From Candidatus Levyibacteriota bacterium (GTDB taxonomy: Bacteria; Patescibacteriota; Microgenomatia; Levybacterales; UBA12049): DNA of 64,000 nt. Of this stretch, positions 13,469 to 64,000 are shown in pieces. The stretch covers positions 36,954 through 100,953 of the forward strand of contig JACPLG010000005.1 in the NCBI GenBank assembly GCA_016186625.1, read 5' to 3'. Under the pieces are notes generated by a model. That model made no database searches, was not told the DNA's origin, and saw only the letters and a list, made by a program, of their open reading frames with translations. Made by a program: the position numbers and the translations under genes. Positions within the stretch are counted from its first letter, which is position 1, and each line of letters starts with the position of its first letter.

Positions 13469-14044
13469 ATGCTATCTGATCTTATAACATCCCGCTCCCG
13501 TGTGAAACTTTTAAATGTATTTTTATCATACCCTTCAGATATGCTTCATGTGCGTGAGCTTGTCCGGCGGACCGGAGATGAGATAAATGCCGTCCGGCGT
13601 GAACTCTCATATCTTGAGAAAAAAGGAATTTTAAGCCGCGAGCCCCGCGCTAACAGAGTTTATTACTTCCTGTCAAAAAACTACGAATTTTATTATGATC
13701 TCCTCAGAATCGGAAGCAAAGCTATTGGTATTGGAGAAACAATCTTAAAAAATCGAGTTAAGTTGGGTAGGATAAAATACGCAATGCTTTCCGGCAAATT
13801 TGCGAGAAAACTTCCCAAGGGGCCGGAAGAAGTGGATTTACTGGTAGTTGGGGCAATTGTTTTGCCAGAGCTGGCACTACTTGTTAGAGAAGAAGAAAAA
13901 AGAATTGATAGTGAAATTAACTATACAGTTATGACAGATGATGAGTTTGATTTCAGGAAGAAAAAAAGAGATCCGTTTATCCTTTCAATTCTTTATGGAT
14001 CACGTGTAATGCTAATTGGGGATGAAGAATCTATGCTGTCATGA
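13469..14044 (+). CDS. winged-helix DNA-binding domain protein with uncharacterised C-terminal domain
   Basis: N-terminal ArsR/MarR-like HTH region (LHVRELVRRTGDEINAVRRELSYLEKKGIL). Stop overlaps the secD start. Confidence 0.4.
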   Translation: MLSDLITSRSRVKLLNVFLSYPSDMLHVRELVRRTGDEINAVRRELSYLEKKGILSREPRANRVYYFLSKNYEFYYDLLRIGSKAIGIGETILKNRVKLGRIKYAMLSGKFARKLPKGPEEVDLLVVGAIVLPELALLVREEEKRIDSEINYTVMTDDEFDFRKKKRDPFILSILYGSRVMLIGDEESMLS

Positions 14045-15387
14045 AAAATCCAAGGCTTATTTTCGCCTTTATAATTCTTCTAACACTGATATCTGCCTTT
14101 GTTAATCTTCCCGGAAATATTCGCTTATTTAATTTTGAGAGAAGCTTTAAATATAACCCGAATTATTTTCTCCAAAAATATAACTTTTCCAAGGAACTAG
14201 CTTTCCGCCAAGGTCTTGATTTAAAAGGCGGAGTTAGTATTACTTTTAAGGCGGAAGTTGAAAAGCTGCCCACAGGAGAGCGAGATAAAGCTCTTGAAAG
14301 CTCCAGGGTGGTAATTGAGCGACGAATTAATCTTTATGGAGTTTCAGAACCCCTAATTCAAACAGCAAAAGTTAATAAAGACTCTAGAATCATAGTCGAG
14401 CTTCCCGGAGTAACGGATGTTAAGGCGGCGATTAACTTAATAGGAGCAACAGCCCAGCTAACCTTTTGGGAGGAGGCGGCAACAGTCTCAGCTGAGGTTG
14501 CAACCTCATCAGCCTATCCAATTAACGCAGATATATCGGGTTTGGGGCCACTGAAACAAACAGATTTAACAGGCTCGGATCTTAGCTCATCTTCGGTTGT
14601 TTTTGATCCAAATACCGGAACACCTCAGGTTCAGCTGAAATTTAATTCCGAGGGATCAAGAAAGTTTGCTGAAATTACCAAGAGAAATGTTGGAAAACCT
14701 GTTGCGATTGTCTTGGATAATCTGGTAATAACCGCTCCAAGCGTTAATGAGGCAATTCTTACAGGAGACGCTGTAATTTCAGGCAACTTTGCCCAGGAGC
14801 AGGCAAAAGCACTAAGCACTCAGCTTAACGCAGGAGCACTTCCTATTTCTTTAAGTGTATTAGAGCAACATGTGGTAGGTCCAACCTTAGGACAGGAGTC
14901 ACTCCAAAAAAGTTTACTAGCCGGAATCATTGGTTTTATAACTATTATTGCATTTATGGTTTCTTTATATAGAAGATTGGGAGTGTTAGCCAGTATTGCT
15001 CTACTCATATATGCACTACTCAACCTTGCTGTCTTTAAAATAAGCAGTCTTACCCCGTATGGAATAACACTTACCTTGGCAGGAATCGCAGGTTTTATTC
15101 TTTCAATTGGAATGGCGGTGGACGCAAATATTCTGATTTTTGAGAGGGTTAAGGAAGAAATGCGGGCGGGAAAAGGGAGAAGCTCCTCAATTGAGCTTGG
15201 GTTTTCTCATGCTTGGACATCAATTAGGGACTCCAATGTTTCAACTCTTATCACCTGTGTGATTCTTTATACTTTTGGCACCGGAATTGTAAGAGGGTTT
15301 GCGCTTATTTTGGCAATTGGAGTATTAATTTCTATGTTTTCGGCAATAACTATAACACGAACTTTCTTAAGACTTGTTTATAAGTAA
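14041..15387 (+). CDS. secD: protein translocase subunit SecD
   Basis: N-terminal TM, periplasmic domain with GLDLKGGVSITFKA, and a C-terminal 6-TM block (LTLAGIAGFILSIGMAVDANILIFERV). Confidence 0.9.
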   Translation: MKNPRLIFAFIILLTLISAFVNLPGNIRLFNFERSFKYNPNYFLQKYNFSKELAFRQGLDLKGGVSITFKAEVEKLPTGERDKALESSRVVIERRINLYGVSEPLIQTAKVNKDSRIIVELPGVTDVKAAINLIGATAQLTFWEEAATVSAEVATSSAYPINADISGLGPLKQTDLTGSDLSSSSVVFDPNTGTPQVQLKFNSEGSRKFAEITKRNVGKPVAIVLDNLVITAPSVNEAILTGDAVISGNFAQEQAKALSTQLNAGALPISLSVLEQHVVGPTLGQESLQKSLLAGIIGFITIIAFMVSLYRRLGVLASIALLIYALLNLAVFKISSLTPYGITLTLAGIAGFILSIGMAVDANILIFERVKEEMRAGKGRSSSIELGFSHAWTSIRDSNVSTLITCVILYTFGTGIVRGFALILAIGVLISMFSAITITRTFLRLVYK

Positions 15388-15501: not shown

Positions 15502-16401
15502 ATGAATATTATTGGTAGGAAAAAATTATATTTTTTAATTTCACTTTTGGTGATGTTGCCGGGATTAGTCTCGCTTGCTCTATATGGGCTTAATCTTTCA
15601 ATAGATTTTACAGGAGGAAGTAGGATGATAATATCTTTTAGCAAAAACGTTTCGGAGGAGGAAACTAAGTTTATTAGCTCAGATCTGGAGAAGCGGAATA
15701 TAAAGGTTTTATCTATTGAGCCGTCAGGAAAAACCGCAATTGTTAGAACATCTCCAATTGATGAGAGGCAAAACTCGGAGTTTAATAAGGATTTGAAGGC
15801 AAAATATAGAGAGGCAATTCAGGAAGAATTCTCAACAATAGGACCAACAATTGGCGGAGAAACTACCAGAAATGCCGTAAAAGCAGTCTTTTTTGCCTCG
15901 CTATTGGTAGTGGTTTACATATCTTTGGTTTTTAGGTCTGTTCCAAAACCGGCTAGCAGTATAAGGTTTGGTATCTCAACTATATTTGCACTAATCCATG
16001 ATGTTTTGGTTGTAGTTGGTGTATTTTCAATTCTCGGTCATTTCTTAAGCGTTGAAATAGACGCTCTTTTTGTAACAGCGCTTCTTACGATTATTGGATT
16101 TTCAGTCCATGACACAATTGTTGTTTTTGACAGGATCCGAGAGAATTTAGGAAAAAATGTCAATGCAAGCTTTGCCCAAGTTGTTAATGATTCAATTCTT
16201 CAAACAATCGGCCGCTCTCTTAATACATCAATCACGGTTTTACTTGTTCTGTTCGCTTTACTTCTGTTCGGCGGCGAGAGTATCAGATGGTTTGTAGTGG
16301 CACTGATTGTGGGTATCGCGTCAGGTACGTATTCCTCAATATTCAATGCCTCACCAATATTGGTGGTCTGGCACGAATGGAGCCAAAGACAAAGTAAATA
16401 G
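15502..16401 (+). CDS. secF: protein translocase subunit SecF
   Basis: Signature LSIDFTGGS, and a 6-TM domain with HDVLVVVGVFSIL and FSVHDTIVVFDRIREN. Confidence 0.9.
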   Translation: MNIIGRKKLYFLISLLVMLPGLVSLALYGLNLSIDFTGGSRMIISFSKNVSEEETKFISSDLEKRNIKVLSIEPSGKTAIVRTSPIDERQNSEFNKDLKAKYREAIQEEFSTIGPTIGGETTRNAVKAVFFASLLVVVYISLVFRSVPKPASSIRFGISTIFALIHDVLVVVGVFSILGHFLSVEIDALFVTALLTIIGFSVHDTIVVFDRIRENLGKNVNASFAQVVNDSILQTIGRSLNTSITVLLVLFALLLFGGESIRWFVVALIVGIASGTYSSIFNASPILVVWHEWSQRQSK

Positions 16402-16420
16402 CAAATAGGAAATAGCAAAG

Positions 16421-16852
16421 ATGAAAGCGGGAATAGATTATATAGGAGTGTCAGCGGGAGCATTGATAGTAAACAAAAAAGGTGAAATTCTTCTAACAAA
16501 AAGAAGCATGAAGGCACGAAACGAAAAAGGAAAATGGGAAGCTCCAGGAGGTCAAGTCCATTTTGGTGAGACTAGAGAGTAAGCAATAAAAAGAGAGATT
16601 AAAGAGGAATTAGGAGTCAATATTGAGATTATTCGAACTCTACATACAACTGATGAAATTTTAGAAAAAGATAAACAACATTGGGTTCCAACTACGTTTT
16701 TGGTAAAAATTAAAAGAGGCCAAACACCTAAAGTTTTGGAACCAGAAAAATGTGACCAAATTGGTTGGTTTAATCTCAATAAACTTCCGTCACCAATCTC
16801 GTATGTAACATCACTTGACATTAAAGAATTCAAAAGACAGTTAAGACGATAA
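16421..16852 (+). pseudogene. NUDIX hydrolase gene interrupted by an in-frame TAA inside the Nudix box
   Basis: Single frame reads MKAGIDYIGVSAGALIVNKKGEILLTKRSMKARNEKGKWEAPGGQVHFGETRE*AIKREIKEELGV...RQLRR*. The TAA at 16580-16582 sits where Gln sits in the E. coli MutT box, consistent with CAA->TAA. No ATG exists downstream of the stop. Confidence 0.6.
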
Positions 16853-16890: not shown

Positions 16891-17343
16891 CTAGGGGGAG
16901 AGTTTGGAGCGGACAATTCCAGAAACCATACCCATGTCGGATTTGCCTTTGAGTTTGGCGCCGAGCACGCCCATGACTTTTCCCATGTCTCCCATTGTTG
17001 AGGCTCCGGTTTCAGATATTGTTTGTTCAACTATATTTCGAACATCTTCTTCTGACATTTGTTCGGGCAGAAAACCTTCTAATATTTTTAGTTCGCTTTG
17101 CTCCTTATCAACTAACTCCTGTCTTCCTGCTTTTTTAAATTCTTCAATAGAATCTTTCCTTTGTTTTGCCTCTTTTTGGATTACTGAAAGAACGTCTTCT
17201 TCGGAAGCAACATATCCTGCGCCGCCTTTTTGAATCTCATAATAATTAACTGCGGAGAGCAAAAGCCGAAGAACAGAAGTTCGCAGCTCGTCACGAGCCA
17301 TCATTGACTGCTTTAATTCTTCTTGGAGTTTTTGCTTATCCAC
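16891..17343 (-). CDS. GatB/YqeY domain-containing protein
   Basis: Full-length similarity to the YqeY fold (MDKQKLQEELKQSMMARDELRTSVLRLLLSAV...LPEQMSEEDV). Confidence 0.8.
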   Translation of the reverse strand: MDKQKLQEELKQSMMARDELRTSVLRLLLSAVNYYEIQKGGAGYVASEEDVLSVIQKEAKQRKDSIEEFKKAGRQELVDKEQSELKILEGFLPEQMSEEDVRNIVEQTISETGASTMGDMGKVMGVLGAKLKGKSDMGMVSGIVRSKLSP

Positions 17344-32443: not shown

Positions 32444-32716
32444 TATGAAAATAATAATTTTTGGCAAAAGTAGTGACTTAGAGGATCTTTTAATAATTAT
32501 TGCCTATATCTTGATCCTTATTCTAATAGCTGCTTTAATTTGGATTTTGATTAGCCCGTTCCTTGCAGTTTTAGTCTCAATTCTTGTCTCATATCTTTTT
32601 TATCTTCGGAAAATCATTGGCAGAAAATAGTCTAAAACTGGATTTATTAGCCTCAATAAAAAAATTTGGGCACTTTACGCTTACTCAGAAAAAACAAATT
32701 TGGTATAGTTACACAT

Positions 32717-33901
32717 ATGTTAAAAATCAATGAGCGGTCGCTTGCTCTTCACAAAAAACATCAGGGGAAGATTGCAACTGTTCCCATAGTTCCCATAAAA
32801 ACCAAAGAAGATCTATCACTTGCCTATACTCCGGGTGTTGCTGCGGCAAGCAGTCTGATTGCCAAAAATCCTATGCTTTCTTATGACTATACGTGGAGGG
32901 GGCGGGCTGTTGCTGTGGTGTCTGACGGCTCGGCGGTGTTGGGACTGGGAAACATAGGCCCTGAAGCGGCACTTCCCGTGATGGAGGGCAAGGCGCTGCT
33001 GCTTAAGGAATTTGGCGGGGTGGACGGCGTGCCTCTAGTTATAAACACTCAGGACGCCTCGGAGATTGTCCGGTTTGTTACCCATATTGCTCCGTCTTTT
33101 TCCGGCATTCTTTTGGAAGATATCAGTGCGCCCCGGTGCTTTCAGATAGAAGAAGAACTCTTAGGAATCGGGATACCGGTCTTTCATGATGATCAGCACG
33201 GGTCAGCGATTGCGGTAAGAGCGGCTCTTAAGAATGCGGCGAAGGTAGTGGGAAAGGAGTATGGTAATCTTCGGGTAGTGATTGTCGGCGCGGGAGCGGC
33301 AGGGCTTGCCACCGCCAAGATGCTTCTTGGCTTAACCTGTCAAAGTGATTTTTGTGAGATTATACCGGGAGGGCTACGGGTAAAAGATGCCATCATTGTC
33401 GATAGGGCGGGGGCCCTCTTTCCCGGAAGAGCTGATCAAAATATATATAAGCAGGGATTAGCCAGCGTGTCCAACATCGACCGCAAAAGTGGGACACTTG
33501 CCGAGGTTATTCAAGGCGCAGATGCGCTGATCGGAGTTTCCGGGCCAAACAATATTACGCCTGAGAATATACGACGCATGGCTCCTCACCCAATCGTATT
33601 TGCCATGGCCAACCCCGTACCCGAGATTATGCCCGATGAGGCCAGACGAGCAGGGGCGGCAGTAGTTGCAACAGGAAGGAGCGACGTTCCTAACCAAATC
33701 AATAACGTCCTGGTATTTCCCGGCGTTTTTCGGGCTGTTAAGGAGGGAAGGTTAAAAACTATTACACCGGAGATGAAACTGGCCGCATCAGACGCGTTGG
33801 CAGGATTAGTAACAAAGCCTACAGAAGATCACATTATCCCCGATCCGTTTTTTCCGAGGCTTGCAGAGACCATCGCCCATGCGATGCTAAAAAAGGCATA
33901 A
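32717..33901 (+). CDS. NAD(P)-dependent malic enzyme (short form, no PTA domain); markedly GC-rich relative to its surroundings
   Basis: LAYTPGVAAAS, VVSDGSAVLGLGNIGPEAALPVMEGKALL and VVIVGAGAAGLA motifs. The likely start is the ATG at 32717 (MLKINERSLALHKKHQGKI). Confidence 0.85.
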   Translation: MLKINERSLALHKKHQGKIATVPIVPIKTKEDLSLAYTPGVAAASSLIAKNPMLSYDYTWRGRAVAVVSDGSAVLGLGNIGPEAALPVMEGKALLLKEFGGVDGVPLVINTQDASEIVRFVTHIAPSFSGILLEDISAPRCFQIEEELLGIGIPVFHDDQHGSAIAVRAALKNAAKVVGKEYGNLRVVIVGAGAAGLATAKMLLGLTCQSDFCEIIPGGLRVKDAIIVDRAGALFPGRADQNIYKQGLASVSNIDRKSGTLAEVIQGADALIGVSGPNNITPENIRRMAPHPIVFAMANPVPEIMPDEARRAGAAVVATGRSDVPNQINNVLVFPGVFRAVKEGRLKTITPEMKLAASDALAGLVTKPTEDHIIPDPFFPRLAETIAHAMLKKA

Positions 33902-33981: not shown

Positions 33982-33985
33982 CAGC

Positions 33986-34054
33986 TGCTGGACTTGGATT
34001 CGAACCAAGATGAGCGGATTCAGAGTCCGCTATCCTACCATTAGATGATCCAGC
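33986..34054 (-). tRNA. tRNA-Gln (anticodon CUG)
   Basis: Minus-strand sequence GCTGGAT...GCGGA-CTCTGAA-TCCGC...CTTGG-TTCGAAT-CCAAG-TCCAGC-A. The acceptor stem pairs, the T-loop is canonical, and the anticodon loop CU-CUG-AA has U33 and A37. The D-arm is short, so the ends are +/- 2 nt. Confidence 0.7.
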
Positions 34055-34124
34055 AAGGCGTACTAATTTTATCTCATTGAGGCTAATAAATCCAGTTTAA
34101 ACCTACTTACTTCCAAAAATATTT

Positions 34125-58421: not shown

Positions 58422-58495
58422 GGCCCCATCGTCTAGTGGTTTAGGATATCTGGTTCTCATCCAGAAGATCAGGGGTTCGAATCCCCTTGGGGCTA
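58422..58495 (+). tRNA. tRNA-Glu (anticodon CUC)
   Basis: GGCCCCA-TC-GTC-TAGTGGTTTAG-GAT-A-TCTGG-TTCTCAT-CCAGA-AGATC-AGGGG-TTCGAAT-CCCCT-TGGGGCT-A, 74 nt. Close to E. coli tRNA-Glu. No encoded CCA. Confidence 0.75.
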
Positions 58496-58499
58496 CAGA

Positions 58500-58614
58500 G
58501 GCCAAGCGGGCAGGTCTAGTGGTTCAGGACATCGGGTTCCCCGCCAGCAACGCTTTGCGTAGCAATTTTCGGGCTGGTCATCCCGAAAATCACGGGTTCG
58601 ACTCCCGTTGGCGG
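58500..58614 (+). ncRNA. tRNA-like element of unresolved structure (canonical D-arm and T-arm/3' acceptor; ~35-40 extra nt in the anticodon region; no complementary 5' acceptor strand found)
   Basis: GTCTAGTGGTTCAGGAC duplicates the tRNA-Glu D-arm. ACGGG-TTCGACT-CCCGT-TGGCGGT-A is a canonical T-arm plus acceptor 3' strand. TCGGG...CCCGA could form an anticodon stem bracketing a 44-nt insert. Confidence 0.3.
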
Positions 58615-58662
58615 TACGCCTCGTCAAACTCTTCAGGGTGAGCTTCAGATTTAACTCAGCAC

Positions 58663-62281: not shown

Positions 62282-64000
62282 AGAAAAAATATGGCTTATT
62301 TTTTTAGTTGTAATTCCTCTGTTATTTTTTTATCAGACGATTTTTTTTGGCAGAATTCCTTTTCCGGGAGATCTTCTTGTAGGTGAATATAACCCTTATA
62401 ACTCTTATCCTTTTTTGGGCTACGTCCCCGGGAGTTATCCAAATAAAGCACAAAACTTTGACGTTATAGAATTATTATATCCAGCTAAATTTTTAAGCAT
62501 AGAATCGTTTAAAAATTTTCAGCTTCCACTTTGGAATCCATATAATTTTTCAGGAAGTCCTCACCTAGCAAGCCTTCAGTCCGGCTCTTTATATCCTTTA
62601 AATTTGATCTTTTTTATCTTGCCATTTGTTTATGCGTGGAGTTTTTATATATGGTTGCAATTTATTTTGGCGGGAATTTTCACATACATATTACTTCGTG
62701 AACTTCGAATAGGATCTGTGGGCAGCTTTTTTGGAGCTCTAAGCTTTACATTCTCTTCATTTTTTGTGGTCTGGATAGAATACGGGAATATAGGACATTC
62801 TATCCTTTGGCTGCCTCTATTGATATGGTTATCTTTGAGATTTGTCAAAAAGCCAACTTTAGGAACATATTTTATTATGATAGCCGGGCTTACCTCATCT
62901 ATCCTAGCGGGGTATATTCAGACATCTTTTTATCTCTTTATTTTTCTCATGTTTTTCACCTTGTTTAACATCATATTTTTAAACGAGAAAGATAGATTGA
63001 GAAAAATAGTAATAATGCTTCCTATTTTTGTTTTTCCTGTATTTTTGTCTGCAGCCCAGCTGATTCCTATGCTAGAGCTATTTAATAGTTCAAGTAGATC
63101 ATCTTATATGATTTCTTCTATGATTAATTCACTTATTCCGAAGTTTCATATAATCACTCTTTTTGTGCCAGATTTCTTTGGCAATCCCGCTACGAGGAAT
63201 TATTGGCTGGAAGGCACATATATAGAAAGAGTGTCTTATATTGGAATACTGCCTTTGCTATTTGCTATTTATTCTGTATTGAAAAGACAAAAACCTACTG
63301 TGTTATTTTTCGCATCCTCTTCGTTAGTTATCTTATTATTAACTTTTGACAACATAATTAGCAGAACCTTTTATTCACTAAATCTACCTTTTGTTTCTAC
63401 TGCTGTTCCAACAAGGATAATGTATTTATTTTGTTTTTCGACGAGCATTTTAGCTGCGTTTGGTTTTGACCTTTTTGAGAAAAATAAAAAAAGAGATAAC
63501 ACTTTTATTATATCATTATTTGCCTCAGGATTAATTTTCATTTCACTTTGGCTATATGTATTGCTTGCTCCCGATTTTTTCAAAAACGAGTCCTTAACTA
63601 CGAATCTAGCTATTTCTAAAAGAAATTTAATTTTACCTACCATGATTTTGGGCGTAGGATCAGTATTGGCGCTGGGCCTTTATAAGTTAAAAAATTTTAA
63701 AAAATACATATTACTTGCTCTACTTCTCTTAACAGTATTTGATCTCTTTTATTTCTTTCAAAAGATTACCCCATTTTCTCCAAGTCAATCAGTTTATCCA
63801 ACAACAGAAGTCATGTCCTATCTAAAGAGTGTTCAGGGAATTGATCGATCGTGGGGATATGGGAGCGGATATATAGAATCAAATATCCAGACTTACGAAA
63901 AAATTTATTCATCTGACGGATATGATGCCCTTCACCTAAAAAGATATGGAGAGCTTTTATCTACTTCAGATGATGGAAATATCTCAGAAAATATTGCAAG
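62259..64000 (+). CDS. YfhO-family polytopic membrane protein (3' end beyond window); not in the supplied ORF track
   Basis: ATG at 62259, overlapping the previous gene by 23 nt, opens a frame (MKFFQIVKEKIWLIFLVVIPLLFFYQTIFFGRIPFPGDLL...) with no stop through the end of the window. It has >12 hydrophobic helices. The YfhO assignment is by general architecture and is tentative. Confidence 0.5.
   Translation, partial: MKFFQIVKEKIWLIFLVVIPLLFFYQTIFFGRIPFPGDLLVGEYNPYNSYPFLGYVPGSYPNKAQNFDVIELLYPAKFLSIESFKNFQLPLWNPYNFSGSPHLASLQSGSLYPLNLIFFILPFVYAWSFYIWLQFILAGIFTYILLRELRIGSVGSFFGALSFTFSSFFVVWIEYGNIGHSILWLPLLIWLSLRFVKKPTLGTYFIMIAGLTSSILAGYIQTSFYLFIFLMFFTLFNIIFLNEKDRLRKIVIMLPIFVFPVFLSAAQLIPMLELFNSSSRSSYMISSMINSLIPKFHIITLFVPDFFGNPATRNYWLEGTYIERVSYIGILPLLFAIYSVLKRQKPTVLFFASSSLVILLLTFDNIISRTFYSLNLPFVSTAVPTRIMYLFCFSTSILAAFGFDLFEKNKKRDNTFIISLFASGLIFISLWLYVLLAPDFFKNESLTTNLAISKRNLILPTMILGVGSVLALGLYKLKNFKKYILLALLLLTVFDLFYFFQKITPFSPSQSVYPTTEVMSYLKSVQGIDRSWGYGSGYIESNIQTYEKIYSSDGYDALHLKRYGELLSTSDDGNISENIA

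Follow-up and report, generated by a model that had tools for sequence, protein, structure and literature searches.

A probable recent nonsense knockout of a MutT/NUDT1-like Nudix gene in a Patescibacteria population

The DNA analyzed here, a stretch of 64 kb that we call the window, contains a Nudix hydrolase gene interrupted by an in-frame TAA. Our main reading, to which we give a probability of about 85%, is that a genuine and very recent nonsense mutation inactivated this MutT/NUDT1-like gene in one clonal population of uncultured, ultra-small Patescibacteria (CPR, Microgenomates-like). The stop is unique to the strain; the gene shows no decay elsewhere, and its orthologues are uninterrupted. 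A C>T change at 16580 would have turned CAA into TAA, and translation would then halt after Glu53, leaving a 53-residue fragment without the catalytic helix. Such a knockout would fit a wider pattern, in which CPR lineages appear to have inactivated and lost members of the orthogroup on repeated occasions, and the gene is presumably dispensable. It is an ordinary young pseudogene, in a family that shows a mild excess of TAA knockouts.

The Nudix frame opens with an ATG at 16421 and closes with a TAA at 16850-16852, and its translation matched exactly that of the initial annotation, which had reported the internal TAA at codon 54. The stitched frame, translated with X at the stop, was used as query against Pfam. 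It matched the NUDIX family (PF00293) at 72.9 bits (cut-off 21.1, E = 3e-20) over residues 10-122, and the domain therefore spans the stop. A regular-expression search placed the catalytic Nudix box at residues 44-66, which bears out the earlier placement of the stop inside this motif. The box, GQVHFGETRE*AIKREIKEELGV (the asterisk marks the stop), is an exact match to the consensus, with the stop at a variable X position; the nucleotide context of codon 54 is GAGACTAGAGAG-TAA-GCAATAAAAAGA. Both the domain score and the motif assign the frame to the NUDIX superfamily. The stop had been described as lying opposite a Gln of Escherichia coli MutT, and the aligned residue is indeed Gln48 of that enzyme. 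Coordinates of the features are collected in Table 1.

Table 1. Features of the Nudix locus in the window, and disrupted copies of the gene at orthologous loci (coordinates of the latter refer to their own sequences).
Feature	Sequence	Coordinates	Strand	Evidence or description
secD	window	14041-15387	+	Pfam SecDF_P1_head, SecD_SecF_C, Sec_GG (secD and secF jointly)
secF	window	15502-16401	+	Pfam SecDF_P1_head, SecD_SecF_C, Sec_GG (secD and secF jointly)
Shine-Dalgarno-like AGGAA 5' of the ATG	window	16407..16411	+	sequence inspection
NUDIX hydrolase pseudogene	window	16421..16852	+	143 codon positions plus terminal TAA, one internal TAA
Residual 53-codon ORF, sole expected product	window	16421..16582	+	ORF reading; public gene calls
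Nudix box, residues 44-66, GX5EX7REUXEEXGU	window	16550..16618	+	regex match
Premature stop TAA (codon 54), likely from CAA (Gln) by C>T at 16580	window	16580..16582	+	codon of L005, orthologues, contigs
89 intact codons 3' of the stop, now presumably untranslated	window	16583..16849	+	without indels or further stops
yqeY-like gene, convergent with the Nudix gene	window	16891..17343	-	PF09424, 169.7 bits
TAA replacing Tyr7 (TAC in 96%-identical L141)	L145	801-803		downstream frame intact
TAA replacing invariant Glu59	L051	4175-4177		downstream frame intact
TAA replacing invariant Glu63	L136	1687-1689		downstream frame intact
TAA replacing Gln73	L115	254-256		downstream frame intact
Relic	L153	972-1274		decayed C-terminus; catalytic helix shortened in frame by 16 residues
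Relic	L063	2150-2335		3' fragment, residues 80-141
Relic	L065	4390-4509		5' fragment, residues 1-40

The first question raised by such a stop in metagenome-derived sequence, where it amounts to a single-base difference, is whether the true codon is CAA and the TAA results from a sequencing, assembly or consensus error, one of the three alternatives of the initial annotation. The exact 53-aa product was found on 5 Logan contigs, each from a separate assembly of different runs (SRR12113422, SRR12113430, SRR12113383 and SRR12113384 among them). Four of these contigs were retrieved, and over 2.8-3.6 kb each matches the window at 100% identity, including the TAA. An exact look-up of the YqeY protein returned the same five contigs, and 5/5 carry the truncated Nudix gene; the public gene calls on them are exactly the 53-aa Nudix fragment. 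Also, the site at 16580-16582 is outside homopolymers and repeats. Because at least five independent single-run assemblies agree at a non-repetitive site, the TAA is, on strong evidence, genuinely in the DNA, and we consider an error of this kind very unlikely. No intact allele of the strain was found among 5.8 billion clustered proteins, in which the best homologue is 87% identical and no near-identical intact protein is on record, and a pattern with N at the mutated base, which admits either allele, gave 0 matches in the JGI metagenomes. A literature search on the SRR accessions returned no paper.

The single-run contigs all begin within secF, towards its 3' end (window positions 15962, 16074, 16101 and 16386), and a look-up of the exact 299-aa SecF among called genes found no record. 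These observations suggest a break of the assembly graph in the 3' part of secF, perhaps due to the co-occurring strain L005 in the same samples.

The nearest relative of the window gene, L005, comes from one of the same samples and is 86.7% identical at the protein level and 85.5% at the DNA level. At codon 54 it presents CAA, and the next relative (L069) presents CAG. Position 54 is most often Gln in the closest 39 homologues, and D, E, Q, H, A, T, N or V occupy it across 59 genome orthologues. As the nearest relative has CAA, a change of CAA to TAA is favoured, in agreement with the transition proposed initially; a single C>T at 16580, in a position tolerant of many residues, is thus the likely event.

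The search of 5.8 billion proteins yielded 329 homologues at E<=1e-10, whose names, together with record titles, place the family in Patescibacteria/CPR (Levybacteria, Gottesmanbacteria, Roizmanbacteria, Saccharibacteria and others). Each of the 39 close homologues that we aligned is full length and has an amino acid at position 54, and a stop at this position was found in 0/59 other genome orthologues as well as in 0/39 close protein homologues. Comparison with orthologues had been recommended as a check, and intact Nudix genes proved to be present at the syntenic position, in secD-secF-nudix/yqeY order, in three GTDB genomes (L006, L007, L018) and three metagenome contigs (L067, L068, L069). 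Thus, the gene carries a disabling change relative to intact syntenic orthologues and this change is present in the assembled DNA, the two marks by which a nonsense pseudogene is recognized.

The age of the lesion was addressed by comparison with L005, to which the window gene is collinear without gaps. The dN/dS ratio (Nei-Gojobori) was 0.088 upstream of the stop (codons 1-53) vs 0.098 downstream of it (codons 55-143), with a dS of about 0.6-0.8. When amino-acid changes were polarised with five outgroups, the region downstream of the stop had accumulated 5 changes on the window branch (D67N, I105V, S118N, I129V, Y137F, all conservative) vs 6 on the L005 branch. Neutral drift of the 3' part over the whole terminal branch would be expected to produce about 60 non-synonymous changes at its 211 non-synonymous sites. 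Since the downstream dN/dS is near the upstream value and there are no indels, the stop appears very young, and we estimate that it arose in roughly the last tenth of the terminal branch or later. With the syntenic orthologues intact and a downstream dN/dS of 0.098, the "very recent inactivating mutation" is the one of the three initial alternatives that we retain. The undecayed 3' half fits "very recent" and "still translated" equally.

The second of these possibilities corresponds to the third initial alternative, i.e., read-through. In this scenario a near-cognate tRNA-Gln(UUG) would read UAA at a low level and insert the ancestral Gln, thereby restoring the wild-type enzyme, and a low-copy house-cleaning enzyme could tolerate the stop. 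The undecayed 3' half, the many residues tolerated at position 54 and the repeated, independent occurrence in the family of a single TAA followed by an intact frame are all in its favour. However, both release factors (RF1 and RF2) recognize UAA, which of the three stops is the one least prone to read-through in bacteria as well as in eukaryotes (PMC5289835). No RNA structure was found 3' of the stop, where the 121-nt fold around and after it was worse than shuffled sequences (z=+1.67), and Rfam gave no match over the stop region. The TAA-G context also ends 5 bona fide genes of the window. Two of the other family stops replace the invariant Glu59 and Glu63, positions at which a near-cognate insertion would mostly give an inactive enzyme. 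Finally, none of the stops is common to two diverged lineages of the family, so none has persisted, and no other orthologue has a stop at codon 54. A stop that is not conserved and has neither a leaky context nor a stimulatory structure does not look like a programmed one. Programmed read-through has therefore no support, and we found no evidence of background read-through by tRNA-Gln(UUG) at a useful level; overall we regard function through read-through as distinctly improbable.

Decoding of TAA as sense, through a change of code or a dedicated suppressor tRNA, was also considered. An in-frame stop inside a conserved domain is the usual first clue to stop reassignment (codes 4, 25) or programmed read-through, and the four other stops detected in the family are also TAA. 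The stop usage of the window speaks against it. Among 64 long non-overlapping ORFs, the terminators are TAA for 40, TGA for 13 and TAG for 11, and many of the TAA-ended ORFs abut the next gene. There is no in-frame stop in the 18,931 codons of the other genes of the window, and a screen of the window for same-frame segment pairs found the Nudix gene alone to be interrupted. Likewise, 407 flanking gene regions of related genomes contain no genuine in-frame stop. As TAA ends 40/64 ORFs and no other gene is interrupted, recoding of TAA is excluded, which upholds the earlier opinion that it was unlikely on a wholesale scale. A suppressor tRNA seems unlikely too: ARAGORN and Rfam detected no tRNA with a UUA anticodon in the 64-kb window, where they identified tRNA-Gln(CUG), tRNA-Glu(CUC) and, at 58506-58616, a tRNA-like element. 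The known bacterial stop reassignments all concern UGA (PMC8629427), whereas TAA is here the main terminator, at a site that is not conserved, in the only gene affected and without stimulatory structure. We consider sense decoding extremely improbable. An apparently gene-free region at 62282-64000, which could have been taken for another pseudogene, is in fact an ORF that runs off the window end.

The catalytic residues R58, E59, E62 and E63 are located 3' of the stop and are invariant in 40 aligned sequences. The ATG opens 53 amino acids alone, and an uninterrupted ORF for a full-length Nudix product is thus absent; the 53-residue fragment is devoid of the catalytic helix and of the C-terminal two thirds of the fold. 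The 89 downstream codons are free of Met, as reported initially, and the first canonical start in frame is a TTG at 16700, which would open a 50-aa ORF. An internal restart giving a split enzyme was ruled out, there being no ATG, GTG or TTG before codon 94, and an AGGAG that resembles a Shine-Dalgarno sequence corresponds simply to the EELG codons of the Nudix box. Hopping of the ribosome from GAG53 to codon 59, where GAG next occurs, was rejected on inspection, because it would delete the invariant Arg58. A product that stops at residue 53 and lacks the helix with Arg58, Glu59, Glu62 and Glu63 is expected to be a dead enzyme, and we infer that nothing is made past codon 53.

Only 19 nt separate the secF stop from the Nudix gene, which probably closes a secD-secF-nudix transcription unit, co-transcription being likely from this arrangement. 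No polar effect would be expected from the stop, because the gene is the last of the unit and faces a convergent gene. The 64-kb window as a whole has a GC content of 33-47% and dense coding. The second, intact Nudix gene at 2436-2912 that had been noticed earlier is confirmed by Pfam (63.1 bits), and it is 33% identical to the broken gene. In many related genomes, a second Nudix paralogue (30-40% identical) directly adjoins the orthologue (L016:3576-3986, L025:3567-3959, L084:88-477, L088:1057-1440 and L096:1981-2343, among others). Unlike these adjoining paralogues, the second Nudix gene of the window is 14 kb from the broken one.

Comparison with characterized enzymes suggests that the ancestral enzyme may have been a MutT/NUDT1-like nucleotide-pool sanitiser. 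Its best solved relatives are 4dyw, AtNUDT1, NUDT15 and MutT. E. coli MutT, an 8-oxo-dGTP diphosphatase and the founding Nudix enzyme, has the same fold family, a full Nudix box and a similarly small single domain (129 aa vs 143 here), and it is 42% identical over residues 12-66. However, the similarity is limited to the N-terminal half, and the window copy is disrupted and falls below the MutT equivalog cut-offs of NCBIfam (TIGR00586, 53.8 vs 97.9; NF008044, 45.8 vs 148). The MutT/NUDIX family protein of Burkholderia pseudomallei (PDB 4dyw) matched residues 10-139 at E=1.6e-21, Arabidopsis NUDT1 (AtNUDT1) and a Rickettsia ADP-ribose pyrophosphatase matched at about 4e-14 each, and human NUDT15 at 2.7e-10 to about 1e-9. 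Proteins 4dyw, AtNUDT1 and NUDT15, which among solved structures match best over the full length, have in common with the window frame the HW..P, EPEKC and GWF motifs 3' of the box. They differ from it in being intact, with substrates that are broad or differ among them (oxidised dNTPs, DHNTP, isoprenoid diphosphates, thiopurine nucleotides).

Recent, short-lived bacterial pseudogenes are typically recognized by one disabling substitution in a frame that is otherwise intact, with intact syntenic orthologues and occurrence in one strain. The window Nudix gene has all these marks. The only difference from ordinary young nonsense pseudogenes is that four further independent TAA knockouts were detected in the orthogroup, among 143 loci.

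These 143 orthologous loci comprise 61 from GTDB genomes, 80 from JGI metagenomes, those of the closest relatives and that of the window. Single in-frame stops are present in five lineages, all of them TAA, at codons 7, 54, 59, 63 and 73, i.e., four of five within codons 54-73. Three further copies (L153, L063, L065) are decayed or truncated, and they are older relics of the Nudix gene. The single stop described initially is thus placed in a wider setting: the stop itself stands, and the independent TAA knockouts in four other lineages were invisible from the window. The differing positions, together with the destruction of two invariant glutamates, argue against programmed recoding.

As a control, we used those flanking genes of these loci for which a second locus provided a homologue. 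A homology-free screen for interrupted genes was too noisy (175 candidates), and a homology-based screen was used instead, which recovered 237/255 planted TAAs. In 407 flanking gene regions (255 kb), it found no genuine single in-frame stop and one frameshift. With the window left out, since it had prompted the survey, 3/142 orthologues had stops by the criteria applied to the controls vs 0/407 regions (one-sided p of about 0.017 when calculated by gene and of about 0.008 by codon), in a comparison that is unfair in that the controls include essential genes (e.g., secDF) that cannot carry knockouts. The excess may therefore reflect dispensability only. From the codon content, TAA would be expected to make up 0.39-0.45 of nonsense paths, and the finding of four TAA out of four has a p of about 0.02-0.04. 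That every stop is TAA and that four of the five fall within codons 54-73 is slightly odd for purely random knockouts and stays mildly unexplained. The simplest reading is a dispensable enzyme that is repeatedly knocked out and then eroded, in the usual birth and death of pseudogenes.

The sole disrupted gene among the 407 control regions is a CMP/dCMP-deaminase-like gene beside a Nudix orthologue (L085:602-859), which is frameshifted relative to homologues with an identical start (L013, L086). The contig measures only 1.6 kb, so an assembly error is possible in this case.

A different account of the same family data is that the knockout was favoured or hitch-hiked, either because loss of a MutT-like enzyme creates a mutator that spreads along with linked beneficial mutations or because the enzyme is costly in some niches. 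It would explain the recurrent young knockouts, the excess of stops calculated above (3/142 vs 0/407) and the three further decayed copies. Also, a long-term dN/dS of about 0.09 combined with frequent knockouts confined to the tips resembles the dynamics of mutator alleles, such as the mutS and mutT mutators of enterobacteria. Against it, the protein scores under the MutT equivalog cut-offs, and the essential genes in the control set mean that dispensability alone may give the excess. Between L145, which carries a TAA, and the intact L141, 63% of substitutions are transitions and 14% are A:T<->C:G; this ordinary spectrum, in a low-power test on one pair, therefore holds no mutT signature. The five TAA-bearing contigs of the window strain are identical over 3 kb, with no sign of hypermutation. 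We consider a favoured or hitch-hiking loss unlikely. More generally, that the UAAs of the family are not dead ends, whether because UAA is read through sufficiently for a low-demand house-cleaning enzyme to stay active or because MutT-like knockouts are recurrently favoured as natural mutators among ultra-small symbiotic bacteria, seems to us a speculative proposition with little chance of being right.

If the Nudix gene is a plain, recent knockout, as we believe, the single case matters little, being one more young pseudogene. For annotation, the gene should be marked as disrupted and not as a 53-aa "Nudix protein", as in the public calls. It may also serve as a negative control for screens of stop-codon recoding, as a reproducible in-frame stop in a catalytic motif can be a plain knockout. 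At the level of the family, 5 single-TAA alleles plus 3 relics in 143 loci vs none in about 400 neighbours constitute a cheap lead on the evolution of gene loss or mutation rate in CPR.

Antisense to the dead 3' half of the Nudix gene there is an ORF of 93 aa at 16552-16833(-), which follows the yqeY stop in the same frame, and an 89-aa gene was called from it on one of the four identical public contigs. It was rejected as spurious: it has no Pfam match, and relatives do not conserve it as an ORF; among them the antisense openness opposite the Nudix gene ranges from 52 to 112 codons. The called gene is probably an artefact of the gene caller, filling the gap left by the pseudogene.

The tRNA-like element mentioned above is on the plus strand, directly 3' of tRNA-Glu(CUC) (58422-58496). 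It scores 32.3 bits with the Rfam tRNA model, is not detected by ARAGORN, and shows good D- and T-arms. Within its anticodon stem (UCGGG/CCCGA) there are 45 nt where 7 would be normal; when 38 nt are taken out, the loop becomes UUCUCAU, as in the neighbouring tRNA-Glu. Two G-G mismatches are present in the acceptor stem, and there is no UUA anticodon. A tRNA with an intron, a chimaera made of two tRNA halves and a tRNA pseudogene are all possible identities of this element.

Elsewhere in the window, a malic-enzyme gene with a TTG start at 32666-33901(+) (Pfam malic, Malic_M), which adjoins tRNA-Gln(CUG) at 33984-34055, coincides with a local GC peak, of 0.465 vs about 0.38.
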